Shown here piece after piece: positions 7,984 through 15,159 of a stretch of 64,000 nucleotides of DNA (within the stretch, counting starts at the first letter, position 1; each line of letters begins with the position of its first letter). The stretch covers positions 968,900 through 1,032,899 of the forward strand of contig CAVORL010000006.1 of assembly GCA_963698595.1 (NCBI GenBank), given 5' to 3'. Under the pieces are notes generated by a model. It made no database searches, was not told the DNA's origin, and saw only the letters and a list, made by a program, of their open reading frames with translations. The translations under genes and the position numbers were made by a program. This stretch comes from an uncultured Chloroflexia bacterium. GTDB taxonomy: Bacteria > Chloroflexota > Limnocylindria > Limnocylindrales > CSP1-4.

Positions 7984-9066
7984 CTAGCCGCTGGTGCCGC
8001 TGCCGGCGGGCGCCGTGGACGGCGCCGGCGAGGCGCCCGGGACGCTCGGGCCCACACCGTCGCCCTTGCCCGGCATCCGGCCGAAGCCGTCGCCGCCCAT
8101 GCGCGGACCGCCGCGACCCTGGCCGCCCATCCCGGGGCCGCCAAGCTCACCGGCCGCCCGGGACTGCACCACGGTCGCCGTCAGCGAGCCGTCGGCGTCG
8201 CGGGTGCCGCCGGCCGTGACGACGTCTCCAACCTTGACGTCGGCGAGCGTCGGCGAGGTGATCCCACCGACCCGATAGGTCGTCGAGGAGGTCACCTTGA
8301 CGACGACAGTCGTCCCGTCGCGCTGCGTGAGCGTGATCGAGTCGGCGCCCTTCTCGGCGACGGTACCGGCCGCCGCAGCCGGCGCGATCTGCACCGACGT
8401 CGCCGTGAGCGTTCCGTCACTGTCGAGCGCCCCGCGCGCCACGATCCGGGCCCCGGCCACGACCGCGTCCTTGGTCGCGTCCTGGCCCGCGAGCTGATAG
8501 GTCGTCGAGCTCGTGACCTCCACCTTCTGGGTTGTCCCGTCGCGAAGCGTCAGGGTGATCGTCGTGCCGGAGACCGAGGCGACGGTGCCCGCTGCGCTGG
8601 GCTGGATCACGTCGATCGCCGTGATCGTGTACGTGCCGTCGTCGTTGCGGGTCTCACGGAAGACGATCCCGTCGCCGACCTTCAGCGTCGAGACCTCGAC
8701 CGCTGCCCCGTCCTTCGTGACGGTGGCGCCGGCCGCCTCGATCGTGCGCGTCCAGCCGTTGTCGGTCGTGAGCGAGAGCTTCGTGCCATCGACGGCCGTG
8801 ATCGAGATCGCGGAGCGGTCGAGACCGCCGCGGACTCCGCGCCCGTCGAGTTCGTCCGTCCGGATCCTCGTGGCGCCATCCGGCGATGTCCACGCGGCTT
8901 CGGCGCCGACGGCCGGAGCCGCGGCACGCGCGGCGGGGGCCAGGTCGGACGGAGCGGCGGCGGTTGCTGCGATCCCGATCGCCATCGCGCCGATGCCGAT
9001 CGCTCCTGCGAGGGCCGCGAGGCCGAGGGTCCGGCGGCGCGGCGTGCTCGTGGTGGGTTCCTGCAT
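7984..9066 (-). CDS. secreted repeat protein (three DUF5666-like modules, Tat-like signal, Gly/Met-rich tail)
   Basis: The N-terminus TPRRRTLGLAALAGAIGIGAMA resembles a twin-arginine signal. Internal repeats include GTVASVSGTTITLTLRDGTTQKVEVTSSTTYQ and GTVAEKGADSITLTQRDGTTVVVKVTSSTTYR. The tail reads GGPGMGGQGRGGPRMGGDGFGRMPG. Confidence 0.75.
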   Translation of the reverse strand: MQEPTTSTPRRRTLGLAALAGAIGIGAMAIGIAATAAAPSDLAPAARAAAPAVGAEAAWTSPDGATRIRTDELDGRGVRGGLDRSAISITAVDGTKLSLTTDNGWTRTIEAAGATVTKDGAAVEVSTLKVGDGIVFRETRNDDGTYTITAIDVIQPSAAGTVASVSGTTITLTLRDGTTQKVEVTSSTTYQLAGQDATKDAVVAGARIVARGALDSDGTLTATSVQIAPAAAAGTVAEKGADSITLTQRDGTTVVVKVTSSTTYRVGGITSPTLADVKVGDVVTAGGTRDADGSLTATVVQSRAAGELGGPGMGGQGRGGPRMGGDGFGRMPGKGDGVGPSVPGASPAPSTAPAGSGTSG

Positions 9067-9159
9067 CTGGTATCTCCTGGAGCCCTCCGTGTCTTCATGG
9101 TGCGACGCCCGGCGCGGGGAGGGCCACCCCGGGCGTTGTTGACCGGTATGGCCGATCGA

Positions 9160-9176
9160 CCTGAAGGTGTCCTGAA
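9160..9176 (-). promoter_or_regulatory. phased direct repeat TTCAGG-N5-TTCAGG (minus-strand reading), candidate OmpR-type response-regulator site
   Basis: CCTGAAggtgtCCTGAA on the plus strand, about 95-110 bp upstream of the minus-strand gene starting at 9066. The architecture matches the sites at 9272 and 12152. Confidence 0.5.
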
Positions 9177-9271
9177 TGGGCCCCGCCGCGACACCTCACG
9201 GCACCTCGCGCGGGAAGGTGCTTCGTGCGCCCGCGGCGGGTTTCGGCGGGCGCCTGCCACGACGGGACGTC

Positions 9272-9288
9272 TTCAGGTTCGCTTCAGG
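9272..9288 (+). promoter_or_regulatory. phased direct repeat TTCAGG-N5-TTCAGG, candidate response-regulator site
   Basis: cTTCAGGttcgcTTCAGGcg lies 64 bp upstream of the ferric-reductase gene start (9352). The 11-bp phasing is as in OmpR/PhoB-type sites. Confidence 0.5.
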
Positions 9289-9351
9289 CGGTCCGGCGAC
9301 CATCCTTCCTCGTCGTGCCGCCCGGCCCGATGCACCACACAGGGTCACGTC

Positions 9352-10773
9352 ATGCTCGACACGCTCCAACCCGTCGCCACCGGTCAGCGTGCGCTGGGGA
9401 CCGTGGCATCTGGGCATCCGGCGCGGCCGCCCTTGCCGCGCCGCTGGGCGCTCCGTACCTCCGACCTCGCGGCGATCGGGGTGGGGATCGCGGTCCTCAT
9501 CGTGCTCATGTGGGCGCGCCACGGTGGAACGGCGGAGCTCGCGTCGCCAGCCGGAGTCCTGACCGCCGGGGGCCAGCTCACGGCACTCCTGGGGACCTAC
9601 ATCGCGCTGGTCCAGCTGGTCCTCATGTCACGAAGCCCATTCCTCGACCAGGTCGTCGGGCCCGATCGGCTCGCCTGGCTACACCGCTGGCTCGGGTTCG
9701 CGTGCGTCTCGCTCGTCGTTGGTCACGTCCTCCTCACGACCGCCGGCTACGCTGCGAGCGCCGGGCGCGGCCTCGTCGAGCAGGCCCTGACCTTCGTGCT
9801 CACCTACCCCTTCGTGCTGGCAGCCGCCGCCGGCCTCGGCCTCTTCCTCCTGGTCGCCCTCAGCTCGGTGCGGGCCGCACGGCGCCGGATGGCATACGAG
9901 ACCTGGTTCGGCCTCCACCTCTACGCCTACCTCGGGATCGCCCTGGCGTTCGCCCATCAGCTCGCCGTCGGCGCCGACTTCGTCGGCGACCCCGTCGCGG
10001 TTGCCTTCTGGATCGCGCTCTATGCCACGACGGCCGCGCTCGTGCTCGTCTTCCGCTTCGGCCAGCCGCTGGCGTTGTCGTTGCACCACCGCTTCGAGGT
10101 CTCCAACGTCGTCGCCGAGGGCCCAGGCGTGGTCTCGGTCTACGTCACCGGCCGCAGGCTCGACCGTCTCGCGGTGCGAGCCGGCCAGTACTTCAACATC
10201 CGCCTGCTGACCGCGGACGGCTGGTGGCGCGCGCATCCCTTTTCGCTGTCCGCGGCCCCCAACGGCCGGTTCCTTCGCTTCACCATCAAGAACCTGGGCG
10301 ACTGGAGCGGCGGACGCCTGCAGCAGGTCCGCCTCGGGACGAAGCTCATCCTCGAAGGGCCGTACGGCACGTTGACCGGCGCTCGACGGCTTCGGCGACG
10401 CGTCCTTCTCGTCGCCGGCGGCGTGGGCATCACGCCGCTGCGGGCGCTTCTCGAGGCCCTGCCGGCGGAGCCGGGCGACCTGACCCTCGTCTACCGCGCA
10501 CGCAGCGCGGATGACATCGTCTTCCGCGATGAGCTCCAGGCGATCGCCAAGGTGCGCGGAGCCACGCTCCACTTCGTGGTCGGGCGGCGCGGAAGCTCCG
10601 CGGTCGGCGACGACCCTCTTGGCCCGGATGCCCTCGTGGCCCTGGCCCCGGACTCCCTGCAGAGCGATGTCTACGTCTGCGGCCCGAGCTCGATGATGGA
10701 AGCGACCGTGGCGTCGCTCCGTGCCCTGGGGGTCCCGCGCGACCAGGTTCACCTCGAGCGCTTCAACCACTGA
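9352..10773 (+). CDS. ferric reductase-like transmembrane protein with FAD- and NAD-binding domains
   Basis: The C-terminal 473 aa of ORF 7942..10773 have six TM helices with conserved His residues, then HPFSLS (FAD site), GPYG and VAGGVGITP (NAD site). The upstream part of the long ORF is antisense to the repeat-protein gene. Confidence 0.85.
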   Translation: MLDTLQPVATGQRALGTVASGHPARPPLPRRWALRTSDLAAIGVGIAVLIVLMWARHGGTAELASPAGVLTAGGQLTALLGTYIALVQLVLMSRSPFLDQVVGPDRLAWLHRWLGFACVSLVVGHVLLTTAGYAASAGRGLVEQALTFVLTYPFVLAAAAGLGLFLLVALSSVRAARRRMAYETWFGLHLYAYLGIALAFAHQLAVGADFVGDPVAVAFWIALYATTAALVLVFRFGQPLALSLHHRFEVSNVVAEGPGVVSVYVTGRRLDRLAVRAGQYFNIRLLTADGWWRAHPFSLSAAPNGRFLRFTIKNLGDWSGGRLQQVRLGTKLILEGPYGTLTGARRLRRRVLLVAGGVGITPLRALLEALPAEPGDLTLVYRARSADDIVFRDELQAIAKVRGATLHFVVGRRGSSAVGDDPLGPDALVALAPDSLQSDVYVCGPSSMMEATVASLRALGVPRDQVHLERFNH

Positions 10774-10787
10774 CAGCGGAGTCATCG

Positions 10788-11339
10788 ATGCCGAAACGCG
10801 GAGCCGTCGCGCTCCTTCTGACCACCTGCGCCCTCGCTCTCCTTCTCTCCTTCAAGACCCCGAGCGAGCTGCCCACCCAGGTCGACGCCATCGGTGGCGC
10901 CGGCGGCATCGCCCCGGCAGCACCCGCGTCGAGCCTGCCGGCTGCCGACGCCACGCCGGCAGCCGGCACCGGCGAAGCGGCAACACCCGACGGGATTCCC
11001 CAGCCGAGCACTGCTCCTGCGCCAGCCGCGACGCCGGCGTCACCCGGAGCGGCCGCCTACCGCAATGGAACGGTCGATGGCTTGGTCGTGGAGACCCGCT
11101 GGGGCGCTGTCCAGGTGCAGGTCACGATCGCGGGCGGCGTGATCACCGACGTCACGGCGCTCCAGCTGCCGTCCGGAGACCGCCACTCCCTGGACATCAG
11201 CCACCGCGTCGAGCCGGTGCTCCGCAGCGCCGCCCTCGCCTCCCAGAGCGCTCGGATCGACGTCCTCTCCGGTGCCACCTACACGAGCACCGCGTACGCC
11301 CGGTCGCTCCAGGCGGCGCTCGACGCGGCCCGGGCCTGA
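10788..11339 (+). CDS. FMN-binding domain protein (membrane anchored)
   Basis: N-terminal TM anchor, Ala/Pro linker, then a C-terminal FMN_bind-type domain ending IDVLSGATYTSTAY, which carries the flavinylation-type S/T motif. Confidence 0.8.
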   Translation: MPKRGAVALLLTTCALALLLSFKTPSELPTQVDAIGGAGGIAPAAPASSLPAADATPAAGTGEAATPDGIPQPSTAPAPAATPASPGAAAYRNGTVDGLVVETRWGAVQVQVTIAGGVITDVTALQLPSGDRHSLDISHRVEPVLRSAALASQSARIDVLSGATYTSTAYARSLQAALDAARA

Positions 11340-11342
11340 CCG

Positions 11343-12104
11343 ATGGGCGTTCGCGTCGACGCCGTGATGGGGACCGTGGTCTCGATCGACGTGCGGGACC
11401 CCGGCCTGAGCACCCCGGCAATCGCCGTGGGGGTGGACGCTGCCATCGCGTGGCTGCACGCTGTGGACGCGCGATTCAGCCCGTACCGCGAGACGAGCGA
11501 GATCTGCCGCCTGGACCGCGGCGAGCTGGCCTTCGACGACTGCCACCCGGACGTGCGGCACGTCCTGCGGGCGTGCGACGATCTCCGGCGCGCGACCGAT
11601 GGAGCCTTCGATGCCCGTGGTCACCGTCCGGACGGCGGCTTCGACCCTTCGGGCTACGTCAAGGGATGGGCCGTCGACGAGGCCGCCGACGTCCTCGTCG
11701 CTGCGGGCGCCCGCAGCTTCGCCATCAACGCCGGCGGCGACGTCCTGGTCCGCGGCGAACCATCGATGGGCCGCCCCTGGCGGGTAGGCGTCCGATCCCC
11801 GGACGAGCCCGGCCGCGTGGCGGCCGTGTTGGCCGTGCGCGACGCGGCGATCGCAACAAGCGGGCTCTACGAACGAGGGCCTCACATCCGTGACCCACGC
11901 TCGGGCGCGACCCCGCGCTCCTTCGCCAGCATCACGGTCATGGGTCCCCGCCTGGCGATCGCCGACGCGGTCGCCACCGCGGCGTTCGCAATGGGGCAGT
12001 CCGGACCCGGGTGGGTCGCCGGCCAGGCGGGGTTGGGGGTGCTCGCGATCGACGCGGCCGGCGTCGGTCACTGGTCCGATCTCGTCGCCGCCGTCCTCGC
12101 GTGA
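11343..12104 (+). CDS. apbE: FAD:protein FMN transferase (ApbE family)
   Basis: MGTVVSIDV, FSPYRETSEI, GFDPSGYVKGWAVD, AINAGGDV and TSGLYERG are typical ApbE blocks. It directly follows its likely FMN-binding substrate protein. Confidence 0.85.
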   Translation: MGVRVDAVMGTVVSIDVRDPGLSTPAIAVGVDAAIAWLHAVDARFSPYRETSEICRLDRGELAFDDCHPDVRHVLRACDDLRRATDGAFDARGHRPDGGFDPSGYVKGWAVDEAADVLVAAGARSFAINAGGDVLVRGEPSMGRPWRVGVRSPDEPGRVAAVLAVRDAAIATSGLYERGPHIRDPRSGATPRSFASITVMGPRLAIADAVATAAFAMGQSGPGWVAGQAGLGVLAIDAAGVGHWSDLVAAVLA

Positions 12105-12151
12105 ACGGAGTGGCTGAGTCCTCCGTCGTCGTCCGGCACCTGCACCCTCGC

Positions 12152-12168
12152 TTCAGGCACGATTCAGG
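12152..12168 (+). promoter_or_regulatory. phased direct repeat TTCAGG-N5-TTCAGG upstream of the protease/two-component operon
   Basis: cTTCAGGcacgaTTCAGGaa lies 58 bp upstream of ATG 12226. It has the same hexamer and spacing as the sites at 9160 and 9272. Confidence 0.5.
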
Positions 12169-12225
12169 AATTCCGGGTACAACCACCTTCGAAGGGGGCG
12201 TCCCGTCGCCCCGCCGGAGACGCCG

Positions 12226-13143
12226 ATGACCCTGGATCAGCACCCGTGGCCGGGAGAAGAGACCGTCGCGCCCGCCCCGGCGACCGCGCGTGGGCACGCG
12301 CCGGGCCCTGCTGGTCCGTCCGTGCCCGCTCCCAGGCCGACGGATCGCGGTCGCGGTGGTCGTTGGCCCGGGGTGCGGGTGGTGGTCGCTGCCTCCATCC
12401 TCTCCGCGGTTCTCGCGAGCGGCGGCACCACGGCAATCCTGCTCGGGGGCGTCCCGGCCGCCGCGTCGCCGGCTGCGTCCACGGCGATCCCGAGTCGAAC
12501 GCCCGCCGCGGCAACGCTCACCGGGCTCGATGCCGAGTCAGGCGTGGCCGCGGTGGCGGCGGCCATCGAGCCGTCGGTCGTCACGATTTCGGCGACGGGT
12601 GGCGGTCGCTCCGCGAGCGCGGGTGGCTCGGGCATCGTCGTCTCGGTGGACGGGCTCATCCTCACGACAACGGTCGCCGTCCCGAGCGACGCGAGCTACA
12701 CGGTCCTCTTCTCCAACGAGCGCGAGGGCACGGCCCGCGTCGTCGCGAGCGACCCGAGCCTGGGGCTCGTCCTCTTGCGAGCCGACGCCACCGGTCTCGT
12801 GCCGGCGAGCCTCACGAATGCCGACATGCTCACGGTCGGCCAGGTGGTGATCGCGGTCGGCAGCCCACTCGGCGAGTTCACCGACACCGTCACGGCCGGG
12901 ATCGTCTCCGGGCTCGATCGGTCGGTCGACCTTCGCGACCCGTCGACCCGCCAACGGGTCACGCTCGACGGTCTGATCCAGACCGACGCAGCCGTAAACA
13001 CGGGGAGCAGCGGGGGCCCGCTCCTCGACACGGGAGGCAGGGTCGTGGGCATCATCGCGACGTCCGCGGGCAACGGCCAGGGCATCGGCTTCGCGATCCC
13101 CGCCAGCTTCGCCCGGGATCTCCTCGCGGGCGCGCTTCCCTGA
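12226..13143 (+). CDS. trypsin-like serine protease (HtrA/S1C-like, no PDZ domain visible)
   Basis: N-terminal TM anchor, with the catalytic Ser in NTGSSGGPLLD and the upstream GSGIVV/DLVLL-type blocks. Confidence 0.8.
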   Translation: MTLDQHPWPGEETVAPAPATARGHAPGPAGPSVPAPRPTDRGRGGRWPGVRVVVAASILSAVLASGGTTAILLGGVPAAASPAASTAIPSRTPAAATLTGLDAESGVAAVAAAIEPSVVTISATGGGRSASAGGSGIVVSVDGLILTTTVAVPSDASYTVLFSNEREGTARVVASDPSLGLVLLRADATGLVPASLTNADMLTVGQVVIAVGSPLGEFTDTVTAGIVSGLDRSVDLRDPSTRQRVTLDGLIQTDAAVNTGSSGGPLLDTGGRVVGIIATSAGNGQGIGFAIPASFARDLLAGALP

Positions 13144-13166: not shown

Positions 13167-13835
13167 GTGCATCTGCTCCTCGTCGAGGACGACCCTCGCC
13201 TCGTGCGACTGCTGACCCGCCTCCTCTCGCAGGACCGCCACGTGGTGGACTCCGCCACCACGGCAGCCGAGGGCCTCGAGCTCGCGTCGGTCGCCGAGCT
13301 CGACGCGGTCATCCTCGACGTCGGCCTCCCCGACGGCTCCGGCTTCGACATCGCCCGGACCCTGCGGAAACAAGGATCGGCCGTGCCGATCCTCATGCTC
13401 ACCGCGCGGGACGCAGTCTCGGCGCGCGTGGAGGGGCTCGACGCCGGGGCAGACGATTACCTGGTGAAGCCGTTCGCCTACGAGGAGCTGCTGGCGCGCC
13501 TGCGGGCGCTCGGCAGGCGACCGCCGCCCCGCCGAGGGCTGACCCTCAAGGCGGGACCGATCCGTCTCGAGGAGACCGAGCGCAGGGTGACCGTTGCCGG
13601 GCGACCGGTCGATTTGAGCCAGCGGGAGTACGCGATCCTGGAGTGCCTGCTGCGCCGCCCCGGCCAGGTCCTCTCGCGGGATCAGCTGCTGGACCAGGCC
13701 TGGCCGTATGGCGCCGCCCTGACTCCGAACACGGTCGAGGCCTACATCCACCTTCTGCGCACGAAGCTCGGGCCGGACGGCGGCGCCTGGATCGAGACCG
13801 TTCGCGGCGTCGGCTACCGGATCCGTGGCTCCTGA
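13167..13835 (+). CDS. OmpR/PhoB-family response regulator
   Basis: Receiver domain (LLLVEDD, ILDVGLPDGSG, LMLTA, KPF) plus a winged-helix trans_reg_C domain (REYAILECL, VGYRI). Confidence 0.9.
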   Translation: MHLLLVEDDPRLVRLLTRLLSQDRHVVDSATTAAEGLELASVAELDAVILDVGLPDGSGFDIARTLRKQGSAVPILMLTARDAVSARVEGLDAGADDYLVKPFAYEELLARLRALGRRPPPRRGLTLKAGPIRLEETERRVTVAGRPVDLSQREYAILECLLRRPGQVLSRDQLLDQAWPYGAALTPNTVEAYIHLLRTKLGPDGGAWIETVRGVGYRIRGS

Positions 13836-15159
13836 CGGCGGCCGCCCGGATCTCACGGGAACCGGCCGCGGTGACGCCGGCGGCGATGCCGCGCTCCTGC
13901 GGCGGACACGCCTGCGCCTCATCGCCTGGAGCGGCGGCCTGACCCTGATCATCCTCCTGGCGCTGGGGGCGCTGGTCAACACGGCCGTCTCCCGGGAGCT
14001 CGCGGATCGCGGCACGGCCATCCTCGAGGAACGCGCCCAGGAGGTCGCCCAGGTCATCGGCCGGCGCGGCCAGCTCCCGGACCGCCCACCCTTCGGGTTC
14101 ACCTTCGGCGGCGAGCAGTCCGGGACGCTGACGCTGGCGATCCAGCCGGACGGCTCCGTGCTCGGCCGGCTGGACCAGGTGATCGGGCTCCCGATCGAGC
14201 CATCCGTCGAGGCCGCGCTGGCGGGTGGCAGCGACACCCGCACGATGATGCTGGACGACACCCCGATCCGGGTCTACTCGGTCACCGTGCCGCGGGCGGA
14301 CGGCGACTGGGTCGTCCAGGTGATCGGCGAGCGCGTCTCCGAGCAGCGGCTCCTCGCGGCGCTCCTCTCGGTCCTCATCGCGGGAAGCATTGCGGCGGCG
14401 GCCCTGGCGATCGCGGGCGGGTGGGTCTATGCGGGCCGGGCCCTCGTGCCGATCCGGTCAGCCATCGACCGGCGCGAGGCCGCGCTGCGCCGCCAGCGCG
14501 AGTTCGCCGCCAACGCGAGCCACGAGCTGCGGACGCCGCTGACGGTGATCCGGGCCAGCGTGACCGACCTGCGCCGCAACCAGGACCAGCCCGTCGGCCA
14601 GGTGGGCGCCGCGCTGGAGGACATCGAGGCCGAGACCACCCACCTAGCCGCGCTCGTCGACGACCTGCTCCTGCTCGCCCGAACGGACGCAGGGACCGTC
14701 GAGATCGAGCGGGCGCCCCTTGACCTCGCCGACGTTGCGGTGGAGGCCGCAGCGCCGCTCACCGTGATCGCTTCGCAGCGGGGTGTGACGCTCGTCGTCG
14801 AGCCGCTGCCCTCCGAAGTGGAGGGCGACGCGTTGCGGCTGCGCCAGCTCGTCACGATCCTGGTCGACAACGCGATCGCCCACAGTCCCTCCGGCGGCGG
14901 GGTCGCGGTGCGGGTGCGCCCGGAGAACGCGATGGCGGTCCTGCGGGTGGACGACGACGGACCAGGCATCCGGGACGATGATCGGGAGCGCGTCTTCGAG
15001 CGCTTCTGGCGGGCCGACGGGGCGCCCGCCGGCGGGACGGGCCTGGGGCTCGCGATCGCGCGCTGGATCGTGGAGCGGCACGGCGGCCGGGTCGATGTGG
15101 CCAACCGCCCCGAGGGCGGCGCCCGCTTCGAGGCCCGGATCCCGCTGCGCCGGGCTTAG
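13825..15159 (+). CDS. sensor histidine kinase (two TM, HAMP, HisKA, HATPase_c)
   Basis: H-box FAANASHELRTPLT, N-box LVDNAIAHS, and G-boxes DDGPGI and GTGLGLAIA. It overlaps the regulator gene by 11 bp. Confidence 0.9.
   Translation: MAPDGGRPDLTGTGRGDAGGDAALLRRTRLRLIAWSGGLTLIILLALGALVNTAVSRELADRGTAILEERAQEVAQVIGRRGQLPDRPPFGFTFGGEQSGTLTLAIQPDGSVLGRLDQVIGLPIEPSVEAALAGGSDTRTMMLDDTPIRVYSVTVPRADGDWVVQVIGERVSEQRLLAALLSVLIAGSIAAAALAIAGGWVYAGRALVPIRSAIDRREAALRRQREFAANASHELRTPLTVIRASVTDLRRNQDQPVGQVGAALEDIEAETTHLAALVDDLLLLARTDAGTVEIERAPLDLADVAVEAAAPLTVIASQRGVTLVVEPLPSEVEGDALRLRQLVTILVDNAIAHSPSGGGVAVRVRPENAMAVLRVDDDGPGIRDDDRERVFERFWRADGAPAGGTGLGLAIARWIVERHGGRVDVANRPEGGARFEARIPLRRA

Follow-up and report, generated by a model that had tools for sequence, protein, structure and literature searches.

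A phased TTCAGG direct repeat marks a predicted envelope-stress-type regulon linked to an OmpR/PhoB-family two-component system in the Limnocylindrales (Chloroflexota)

Does a short, repeated operator-like motif place an envelope protease, a flavin-based electron-transfer operon and a secreted protein of an uncultured bacterium under a single switch, and if so, which regulator would operate it? The question is raised by a 64,000-nucleotide stretch of DNA (hereafter the window; C6:968900-1032899 of assembly GCA_963698595.1, contig CAVORL010000006.1) from an uncultured Chloroflexia bacterium of the order Limnocylindrales, in which the direct repeat TTCAGGNNNNNTTCAGG (TTCAGG-N5-TTCAGG, hereafter the box) precedes three transcription units. 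We consider it likely that each box offers two tandem half-sites to a head-to-tail dimer of an OmpR/PhoB-family response regulator whose gene lies in the window itself (13167..13835, + strand), and which would thereby control a predicted regulon. The statistics of the motif, the placement of its sites, their conservation and their linkage to this regulator across genera are observations.

The box has exactly three matches in the window, at 9160-9176 (-), 9272-9288 (+) and 12152-12168 (+), all with identical hexamers at an 11-bp start-to-start phasing and all in intergenic positions when placed against the window genes. None of 100 dinucleotide-preserving shuffles of the window contained the box (0 expected versus 3 observed), and only six of the 25 single TTCAGG hexamers in the window make up the three pairs. 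In the whole genome (2.5 Mb, 72% G+C), there are four exact boxes and no match to a reversed control pattern. Of the 587 TTCAGG hexamers genome-wide, same-strand neighbors with a start-to-start spacing of 11 occur four times, against ∼0.07 such pairs expected (our own arithmetic), while each of the other same-strand spacings up to 60 occurs at most once, leaving 11 as the sole enriched spacing. All four exact boxes are intergenic, and both sites with one mismatch are also non-coding, whereas TTCAGG pairs with a 3- or 6-nt gap lie mostly inside coding DNA across the genome. Boxes with two mismatches are non-coding in 17 of 67 cases, versus 13 of 56 for the reversed control, and are thus not enriched outside genes, so that low-affinity sites cannot be called. 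The original prediction had described three intergenic, identically phased sites with no further pair in the window, and had called for a genome-wide search for intergenic confinement; each of these points is borne out.

Conservation in orthologous promoters, which had likewise been named as a check, is found throughout the genus: the box is present in 35 of 36 genus genomes (∼90 sites versus 7 for the control), and its 5-nt spacer varies among these sites while the box recurs, the invariance of the hexamers in these sets being a consequence of the search pattern. When the downstream genes of 98 distinct exact genus sites (the window's own included) were clustered, the box was found upstream of an HlyD adaptor at 22 sites, a protease at 19, a DUF5666 protein at 17, a conserved non-coding element (a candidate small RNA) at about 16, a reductase at seven, a small SHOCT-tailed membrane protein at four, and the regulator itself at two. 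A relaxed pattern, sought within 450 nt upstream of each gene, was recovered for 18 of 19 genus protease genes, 16 of 17 DUF5666 genes, 12 of 17 HlyD genes and six of eight reductase genes (seven of nine when the window is counted). Across all fetched loci, the same pattern was found before 0 of 39 kinase genes, 0 of 15 FMN_bind genes, 0 of 19 ApbE genes, 0 of 33 MacB ATPase genes and 0 of 8 MacB permease genes. As the boxes stand before first genes and never before these internal genes, the box marks operon heads. In many genus genomes, the DUF5666 gene stands directly divergent to the protease operon; here and in several others of the genus, a separately boxed reductase operon lies between them.

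Beyond the genus, the exact TTCAGG box recurs commonly in five or six of the family's genera, and other members of the class rarely have it (a tally that includes two unpublished genomes, G340 and G174, on which none of the specific claims is based). In the other genera that have it, the box adjoins an orthologous regulator-kinase pair (regulator 76-82% identical) in rearranged gene orders, and the boxed loci also hold proteases, DUF5666 genes and HlyD-MacB operons. Most of the family's genera encode a kinase orthologue (at least 49% identity over its full length), and 20 family loci were chosen by this orthologue alone, without reference to the motif. In these loci, the protease, HlyD-MacB-permease, DUF5666 and reductase-FMN_bind-ApbE families adjoin the two-component system, and the box takes the form CTCAGG-N5-CTCAG[GC] (13 sites versus 3 for the control). 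This synteny, established without recourse to the motif, connects the reductase-ApbE module with the sensor and, together with the box at seven of nine genus reductase operons, supports the earlier proposal that the two-component system is connected to that operon. The reductase operon is an accessory member of the regulon, boxed, among the loci checked, in this genus only.

The form of the box also varies along with the adjacent regulator. The recognition helix, TPNTVEAYIHLLRTKL in the window, reads LTPNTVEAYIHLLR (PNTV...HLLR) in TTCAGG genera and VTPNAVDAYVHYLR (PNAV...HYLR) in CTCAGG genera, with two residues differing; these positions align with T194 and R201 of PhoB, which we take to be base-contacting residues. 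The regulator of genus g10 is otherwise of the CTCAGG type, yet it combines T and L at these positions with a TTCAGG box. This joint change of helix and box is suggestive of the adjacent regulator as the binder.

The three boxes of the window share a common promoter layout. Box A, TTCAGGacaccTTCAGG in its minus-strand reading (9160..9176, -), lies 93 nt upstream of the DUF5666 start codon (ATG at 9066), oriented with that gene, and an exact box is found in the orthologous promoters of 17 genus genomes. Box B, TTCAGGttcgcTTCAGG (9272..9288, +), lies 63 nt upstream of, and in the same orientation as, the reductase start codon (ATG at 9352) that opens the reductase-FMN_bind-ApbE operon. Box C, TTCAGGcacgaTTCAGG (12152..12168, +), lies 57 nt upstream of the protease start codon (ATG at 12226) and 47 nt past the ApbE stop (12104), in the promoter of the protease-regulator-kinase operon, where 19 genus genomes have an exact box. 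Each is followed, after 9 nt, by a -10-like hexamer, read from the sequence and from its position in aligned sites: CATACC (9145..9150, -) for box A, GACCAT (9298..9303, +) for box B, and TACAAC (12178..12183, +) for box C, the last of which is kept in most orthologous protease promoters. In 69 aligned sites from five promoter families, anchored on the box, base 11 after the box is A in 65, which is the second base of a -10-like hexamer spanning positions +10 to +15 after the 17-bp box (e.g., TACAAC, GATACA, CACGAT, GACCAT), and the flanks of the box and the 5-nt spacer have an information content near zero. A consensus scan detected no canonical -35/-10 promoter in the region, and this, with the fixed 9-nt gap, is in line with the earlier remark that direct repeats bound by OmpR/PhoB-family regulators often stand in for a -35 element.

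Regulators of the OmpR/PhoB family bind direct repeats with a 10-11 bp period, and the pho boxes of PhoB end ∼10 bp upstream of the -10 element and replace the -35 element, an arrangement termed class II activation. By analogy, the box layout matches that of activating pho boxes, and three features of a direct-repeat operator are found here: like half-sites at 11 bp, a fixed position relative to the core promoter, and a winged-helix regulator encoded alongside, with a box before its own operon. The identity of the binder, activation by binding and the signal are inferred. In the proposed mechanism, an extracytoplasmic signal would activate the sensor histidine kinase (13825..15159), which would phosphorylate the regulator, and a regulator dimer would then occupy the two TTCAGG hexamers, one helical turn apart. 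With the -10-like hexamer at about -12 to -7, the box would fall at about -38 to -22, where it could take the place of the -35 element and recruit RNA polymerase, as at pho boxes. Predicted targets within the window are the regulator's own operon, headed by the HtrA-like protease (positive autoregulation), the divergent DUF5666 protein, and the reductase-FMN_bind-ApbE operon for electron export; other contigs would contribute an exporter of the HlyD-MacB type and a small RNA of ∼125 nt that has two anti-Shine-Dalgarno loops. In its make-up, this target set resembles a regulon for envelope or secretion stress. The small regulon first proposed, which joined envelope proteolysis to flavoprotein-based electron transfer, is supported by conservation and synteny, and would be larger than envisaged, also taking in the exporter and the small RNA.

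Several observations weigh against this reading. In genus g4 (loci L128-L130), the regulator-kinase pair stands alone, with none of its usual neighbors and no recognisable box within 6 kb, and several family loci with an orthologous system have no recognisable box within 6 kb. The genome contains 11 Trans_reg_C matches (i.e., about ten other OmpR-type DNA-binding proteins), and adjacency alone is therefore no proof of the binder. The regulators of the TTCAGG group form one clade, with g10 branching first, so that the change of helix and box is a single coincident event and not a statistic. In addition, the -10-like hexamers fit TANNNT poorly, many of them ending in C, and activation over repression is read from the position of the box alone.

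This last point bears on the alternative that survives best, namely that the adjacent regulator binds the boxes and represses, occluding RNA polymerase at about -38 to -22, with its release switching the regulon on. We regard this as unlikely, given that the geometry is that of activating pho boxes, and that no -35/-10 promoter that could work unaided is detectable. The distal TTCAGG does share three of six bases with TTGACA, but it lies 20 nt from the -10 element, too far for a normal -35. Among relatives with a protease, a regulator and a kinase, MprAB is reportedly positively autoregulated. The same has been inferred for CssR at htrB (PMC12802291). A site that overlaps the core promoter can also repress, as Streptomyces CutR does at htrB-cssRS from a site at -17 (PMC12802291).

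Marginally less probable again is that the boxes are real operators bound by another OmpR-family regulator of the genome. The number of Trans_reg_C matches would allow for this, as would the use of TTCAG-type direct repeats by other regulators (e.g., at Pseudomonas PhoP-PhoQ-like loci). However, the box is immediately next to this regulator-kinase orthologue in six genera, even though gene orders are rearranged, the first base of the box (T or C) changes along with the recognition helix of the adjacent regulator, and the 18 kb around the fourth genomic box (∼8 kb upstream and ∼10 kb downstream) contain no regulator gene. That the repeat is instead a promoter element of an alternative sigma factor of the extracytoplasmic function (ECF) type is highly improbable: the fixed distance to a -10-like element and the envelope-type genes would fit an ECF regulon, but the two identical hexamers at an 11-bp period leave gaps of 9 and 20 nt to the -10 rather than the 16-18 nt of a sigma spacer, the downstream hexamer resembles a housekeeping -10 (TACAAC, GATACA) and not the CGT-type of ECF factors, and the motif travels with the two-component system, with no sigma gene seen beside it.

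The Pseudomonas loci (L225:5583-5623, L228 and L232) carry four tandem GTTCAG half-sites with an 11-bp period, followed by TAGTCT, upstream of the PhoP-PhoQ-like genes, and the regulator encoded there has a different recognition helix (DPNVIEVLVGRLRRKL) despite the same half-site.

The regulator itself is assigned by its Pfam Response_reg and Trans_reg_C domains. Every equivalog among its 25 best NCBIfam matches listed scored below its cut-off (for the PhoB model, 174 bits against a cut-off of 296), and among its solved relatives, BasR, PhoP and PrrA come nearest, at ∼140 bits each. Homologues with 79% identity were found by protein search, one of them labelled by NCBI as 'Candidatus Limnocylindrales bacterium', and the matches listed in a search of named genomes with an alignment of the regulator were distant paralogues (34-51% identity), with no cultured carrier among them. 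The host thus belongs to the Chloroflexota (class Candidatus Limnocylindria), and an actinobacterial origin, considered at first, was discarded. A look-up by exact protein sequence gave no match, and no public sequencing run containing this DNA was listed. The kinase (+ strand; Pfam HisKA and HATPase_c) has, in its translation, an extracytoplasmic domain of ∼125 amino acids and no cysteine anywhere, this domain included. At the head of their operon is a membrane-anchored, trypsin-like (HtrA-like) serine protease (12226..13143, +; Pfam Trypsin_2), to which the NCBIfam HtrA models align over the protease domain only, with scores below their cut-offs, and no PDZ domain is present. The protease-regulator-kinase order of the HtrA/two-component operon named in the original prediction is therefore upheld by Pfam, with the qualification that the protease is without the PDZ domain.

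The reductase operon opens with a NOX/MsrQ-like flavocytochrome (9352..10773, +; Ferric_reduct PF01794, FAD_binding_8 PF08022 and NAD_binding_1 PF00175), followed by a protein with a flavin mononucleotide (FMN)-binding domain, the flavinylation substrate (10788..11339, +; PF04205), and the flavin transferase ApbE (11343..12104, +; PF02424, E 1.2e-43). An open reading frame at 9225..10514 (+), considered as the reductase gene, was rejected: it overlaps box B and, in another frame, the true reductase gene, has no Pfam match and is an artefact of high G+C content, the true gene being that which starts at the ATG at 9352. On the opposite strand, the secreted protein (7984..9066, -) consists of repeated DUF5666 domains (PF18914, E 9.4e-11) with, in its translation, a signal-like N-terminus that contains RRR and a tail rich in Gly and Met; its protein atlas matches were DUF5666 clusters and gave nothing beyond the family name.

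Outside the window, the fourth exact box of the genome (C5:178522-178538; L001:1501-1517) lies 74 nt upstream of a gene for an HlyD-type adaptor, behind which are a MacB-type ATPase and then an FtsX-type permease (operon L087:8114-11609). This operon is divergent from a glycine-betaine ATP-binding cassette (ABC) transporter operon, and of all boxed targets, the HlyD adaptor is retained most frequently across the genus (22 genomes). One of the two sites with a single mismatch, C5:163917-163933 (GTCAGGggaccTTCAGG), was dropped as a regulatory site and is probably a chance match, as it falls where gene ends converge and no gene lies downstream. Two further boxed families were noted in other genomes of the genus. 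In four (L009:1559-1927, L026, L039:2042-2539 and L069), an exact box precedes a small membrane protein whose C-terminal tail is SHOCT-like (...LTDEEFAAAKRKLLGL), and in two (L061:2117-2857 and L067:1181-1957) it precedes a secreted protein that is lipoprotein-like and carries motifs resembling those of intradiol dioxygenases (TEGPYF...IDVWQAD), the L067 copy appearing frameshifted.

The other site with one mismatch, C2:10386 (TTCAGAaacgcTTCAGG), is the promoter of the small-RNA candidate (G000:C2:10386-10546; L148:587-747), a conserved element of ∼125 nt that is preceded by the box at ∼16 genus sites. Each copy folds alone into two hairpins with loops CUCCCUCC or CCUCCUCC(C) and a long terminator hairpin, rich in G+C, after which comes UUUCGCGU. 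Folding Z-scores range from -3.5 to -6.6, and RNAalifold recovered the second hairpin and the terminator, with five pairs showing compensatory changes. A covariance model found a single copy in each of 11 sampled genus genomes (including G000:C2:10422-10546), and TTCAG[GA]-N5-TTCAG[GC] occurs at the same distance upstream of all 11 copies, which were found independently of the motif. The nearest Rfam family is the alphaproteobacterial ar14 small RNA (RF02344), whose consensus has the same sequence of two hairpins with CCUCCUCCC loops and a terminator hairpin; the element, which comes from another phylum, scores 35.1 bits where the gathering score is 58.8, and is not a member. Its likeness to ar14 and to other small RNAs with C-rich loops may reflect a convergent use of anti-Shine-Dalgarno loops. 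The complementarity of the CCUCCUCCC loops to the Shine-Dalgarno sequence suggests that the small RNA acts by translational repression, and a count of extended Shine-Dalgarno matches, made in search of its targets, gave an unspecific list.

Taken together, the mechanism is probably an ordinary one, that of a positively autoregulated, class II-activated regulon of the OmpR/PhoB type, with a textbook operator logic. The novelty lies in the composition of the regulon in this lineage: a protease, a DUF5666 protein, a MacB exporter, a flavin module of the MsrQ-like type and a small RNA with anti-Shine-Dalgarno loops, a gene set for which we found no published description under one switch. If correct, this would give an uncharacterised two-component system a regulon defined at the sequence level, in a Chloroflexota lineage that is uncultured and widespread in soil and freshwater, and a conserved small RNA with two anti-Shine-Dalgarno loops would join such a regulon. 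It would also place an MsrQ-like flavinylation cluster under a defined stress-type switch, which argues for a role in envelope maintenance. A more tentative extension, which we think possible and nonetheless doubtful, is that the flavinylated electron-export module is part of an inducible envelope repair program, and not a device for iron assimilation or respiration. The sensor that switches on the protease, the exporter and the small RNA would then also turn on NAD(P)H-driven electron delivery to an extracytoplasmic flavoprotein. As with MsrPQ, which in E. coli is under the control of HprRS, these electrons could serve to detoxify oxidants or to restore damaged proteins of the envelope to their reduced state. 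Such a role would give uncharacterised MsrQ-like clusters both a physiological function and a handle for their induction.

Of the known systems, the PhoB pho box of E. coli is alike in operator layout, with tandem repeats one helical turn apart, 9-10 bp before the -10 and with no -35, bound by a winged-helix regulator, whereas its half-site sequence, signal and regulon differ. MprAB-PepD of Mycobacterium tuberculosis also pairs an OmpR-family regulator and its kinase with an HtrA-like protease, and is said to be positively autoregulated, with one box at both the regulator operon and the protease. The MprA box is reportedly built of direct repeats (8 + 3 + 8; period 11 bp) whose core is TCTCAG(G), and if this is correct it would equal the CTCAGG of the sister genera, one base off the TTCAGG found here. 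The two systems differ in gene order (mprA-mprB-pepD rather than protease-regulator-kinase) and in the protease, which here lacks the PDZ domain that PepD is said to have. The targets found for the present system include no sigma-factor gene but do include a flavinylation module, a small RNA and a MacB exporter, and the host belongs to the Chloroflexota. The C. glutamicum MprA box, TKTTAAGAAM, differs from the TTCAGG box.

The gene order described here, HtrA-like protease, regulator and kinase, is identical to that of CssRS-HtrB in Streptomyces, where htrB-cssRS has been proposed to form one operon activated by CssR, with a role in extracytoplasmic protein quality control (PMC12802291, PMC3498368). 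The sensor domains of CssS and CutS have two conserved cysteines, in contrast to the kinase described here, which has none. The regulon and box of CssR are stated to be undefined, and the CutR box, TAWATAAA, is unrelated to the TTCAGG box (PMC12802291).

MsrQ-like flavinylation clusters are widely conserved among Actinobacteria and uncommon elsewhere (Meheust et al., 2021, PMC8238504); iron assimilation is discussed for some of them, and neither a regulator nor an established function is named (PMC8238504). The reductase operon in the window has the defining set of these clusters, i.e., PF01794 with a C-terminal PF00175, an FMN-binding protein and ApbE, and it differs in that it occurs in the Chloroflexota, under the predicted control of a two-component system of the envelope-stress type.

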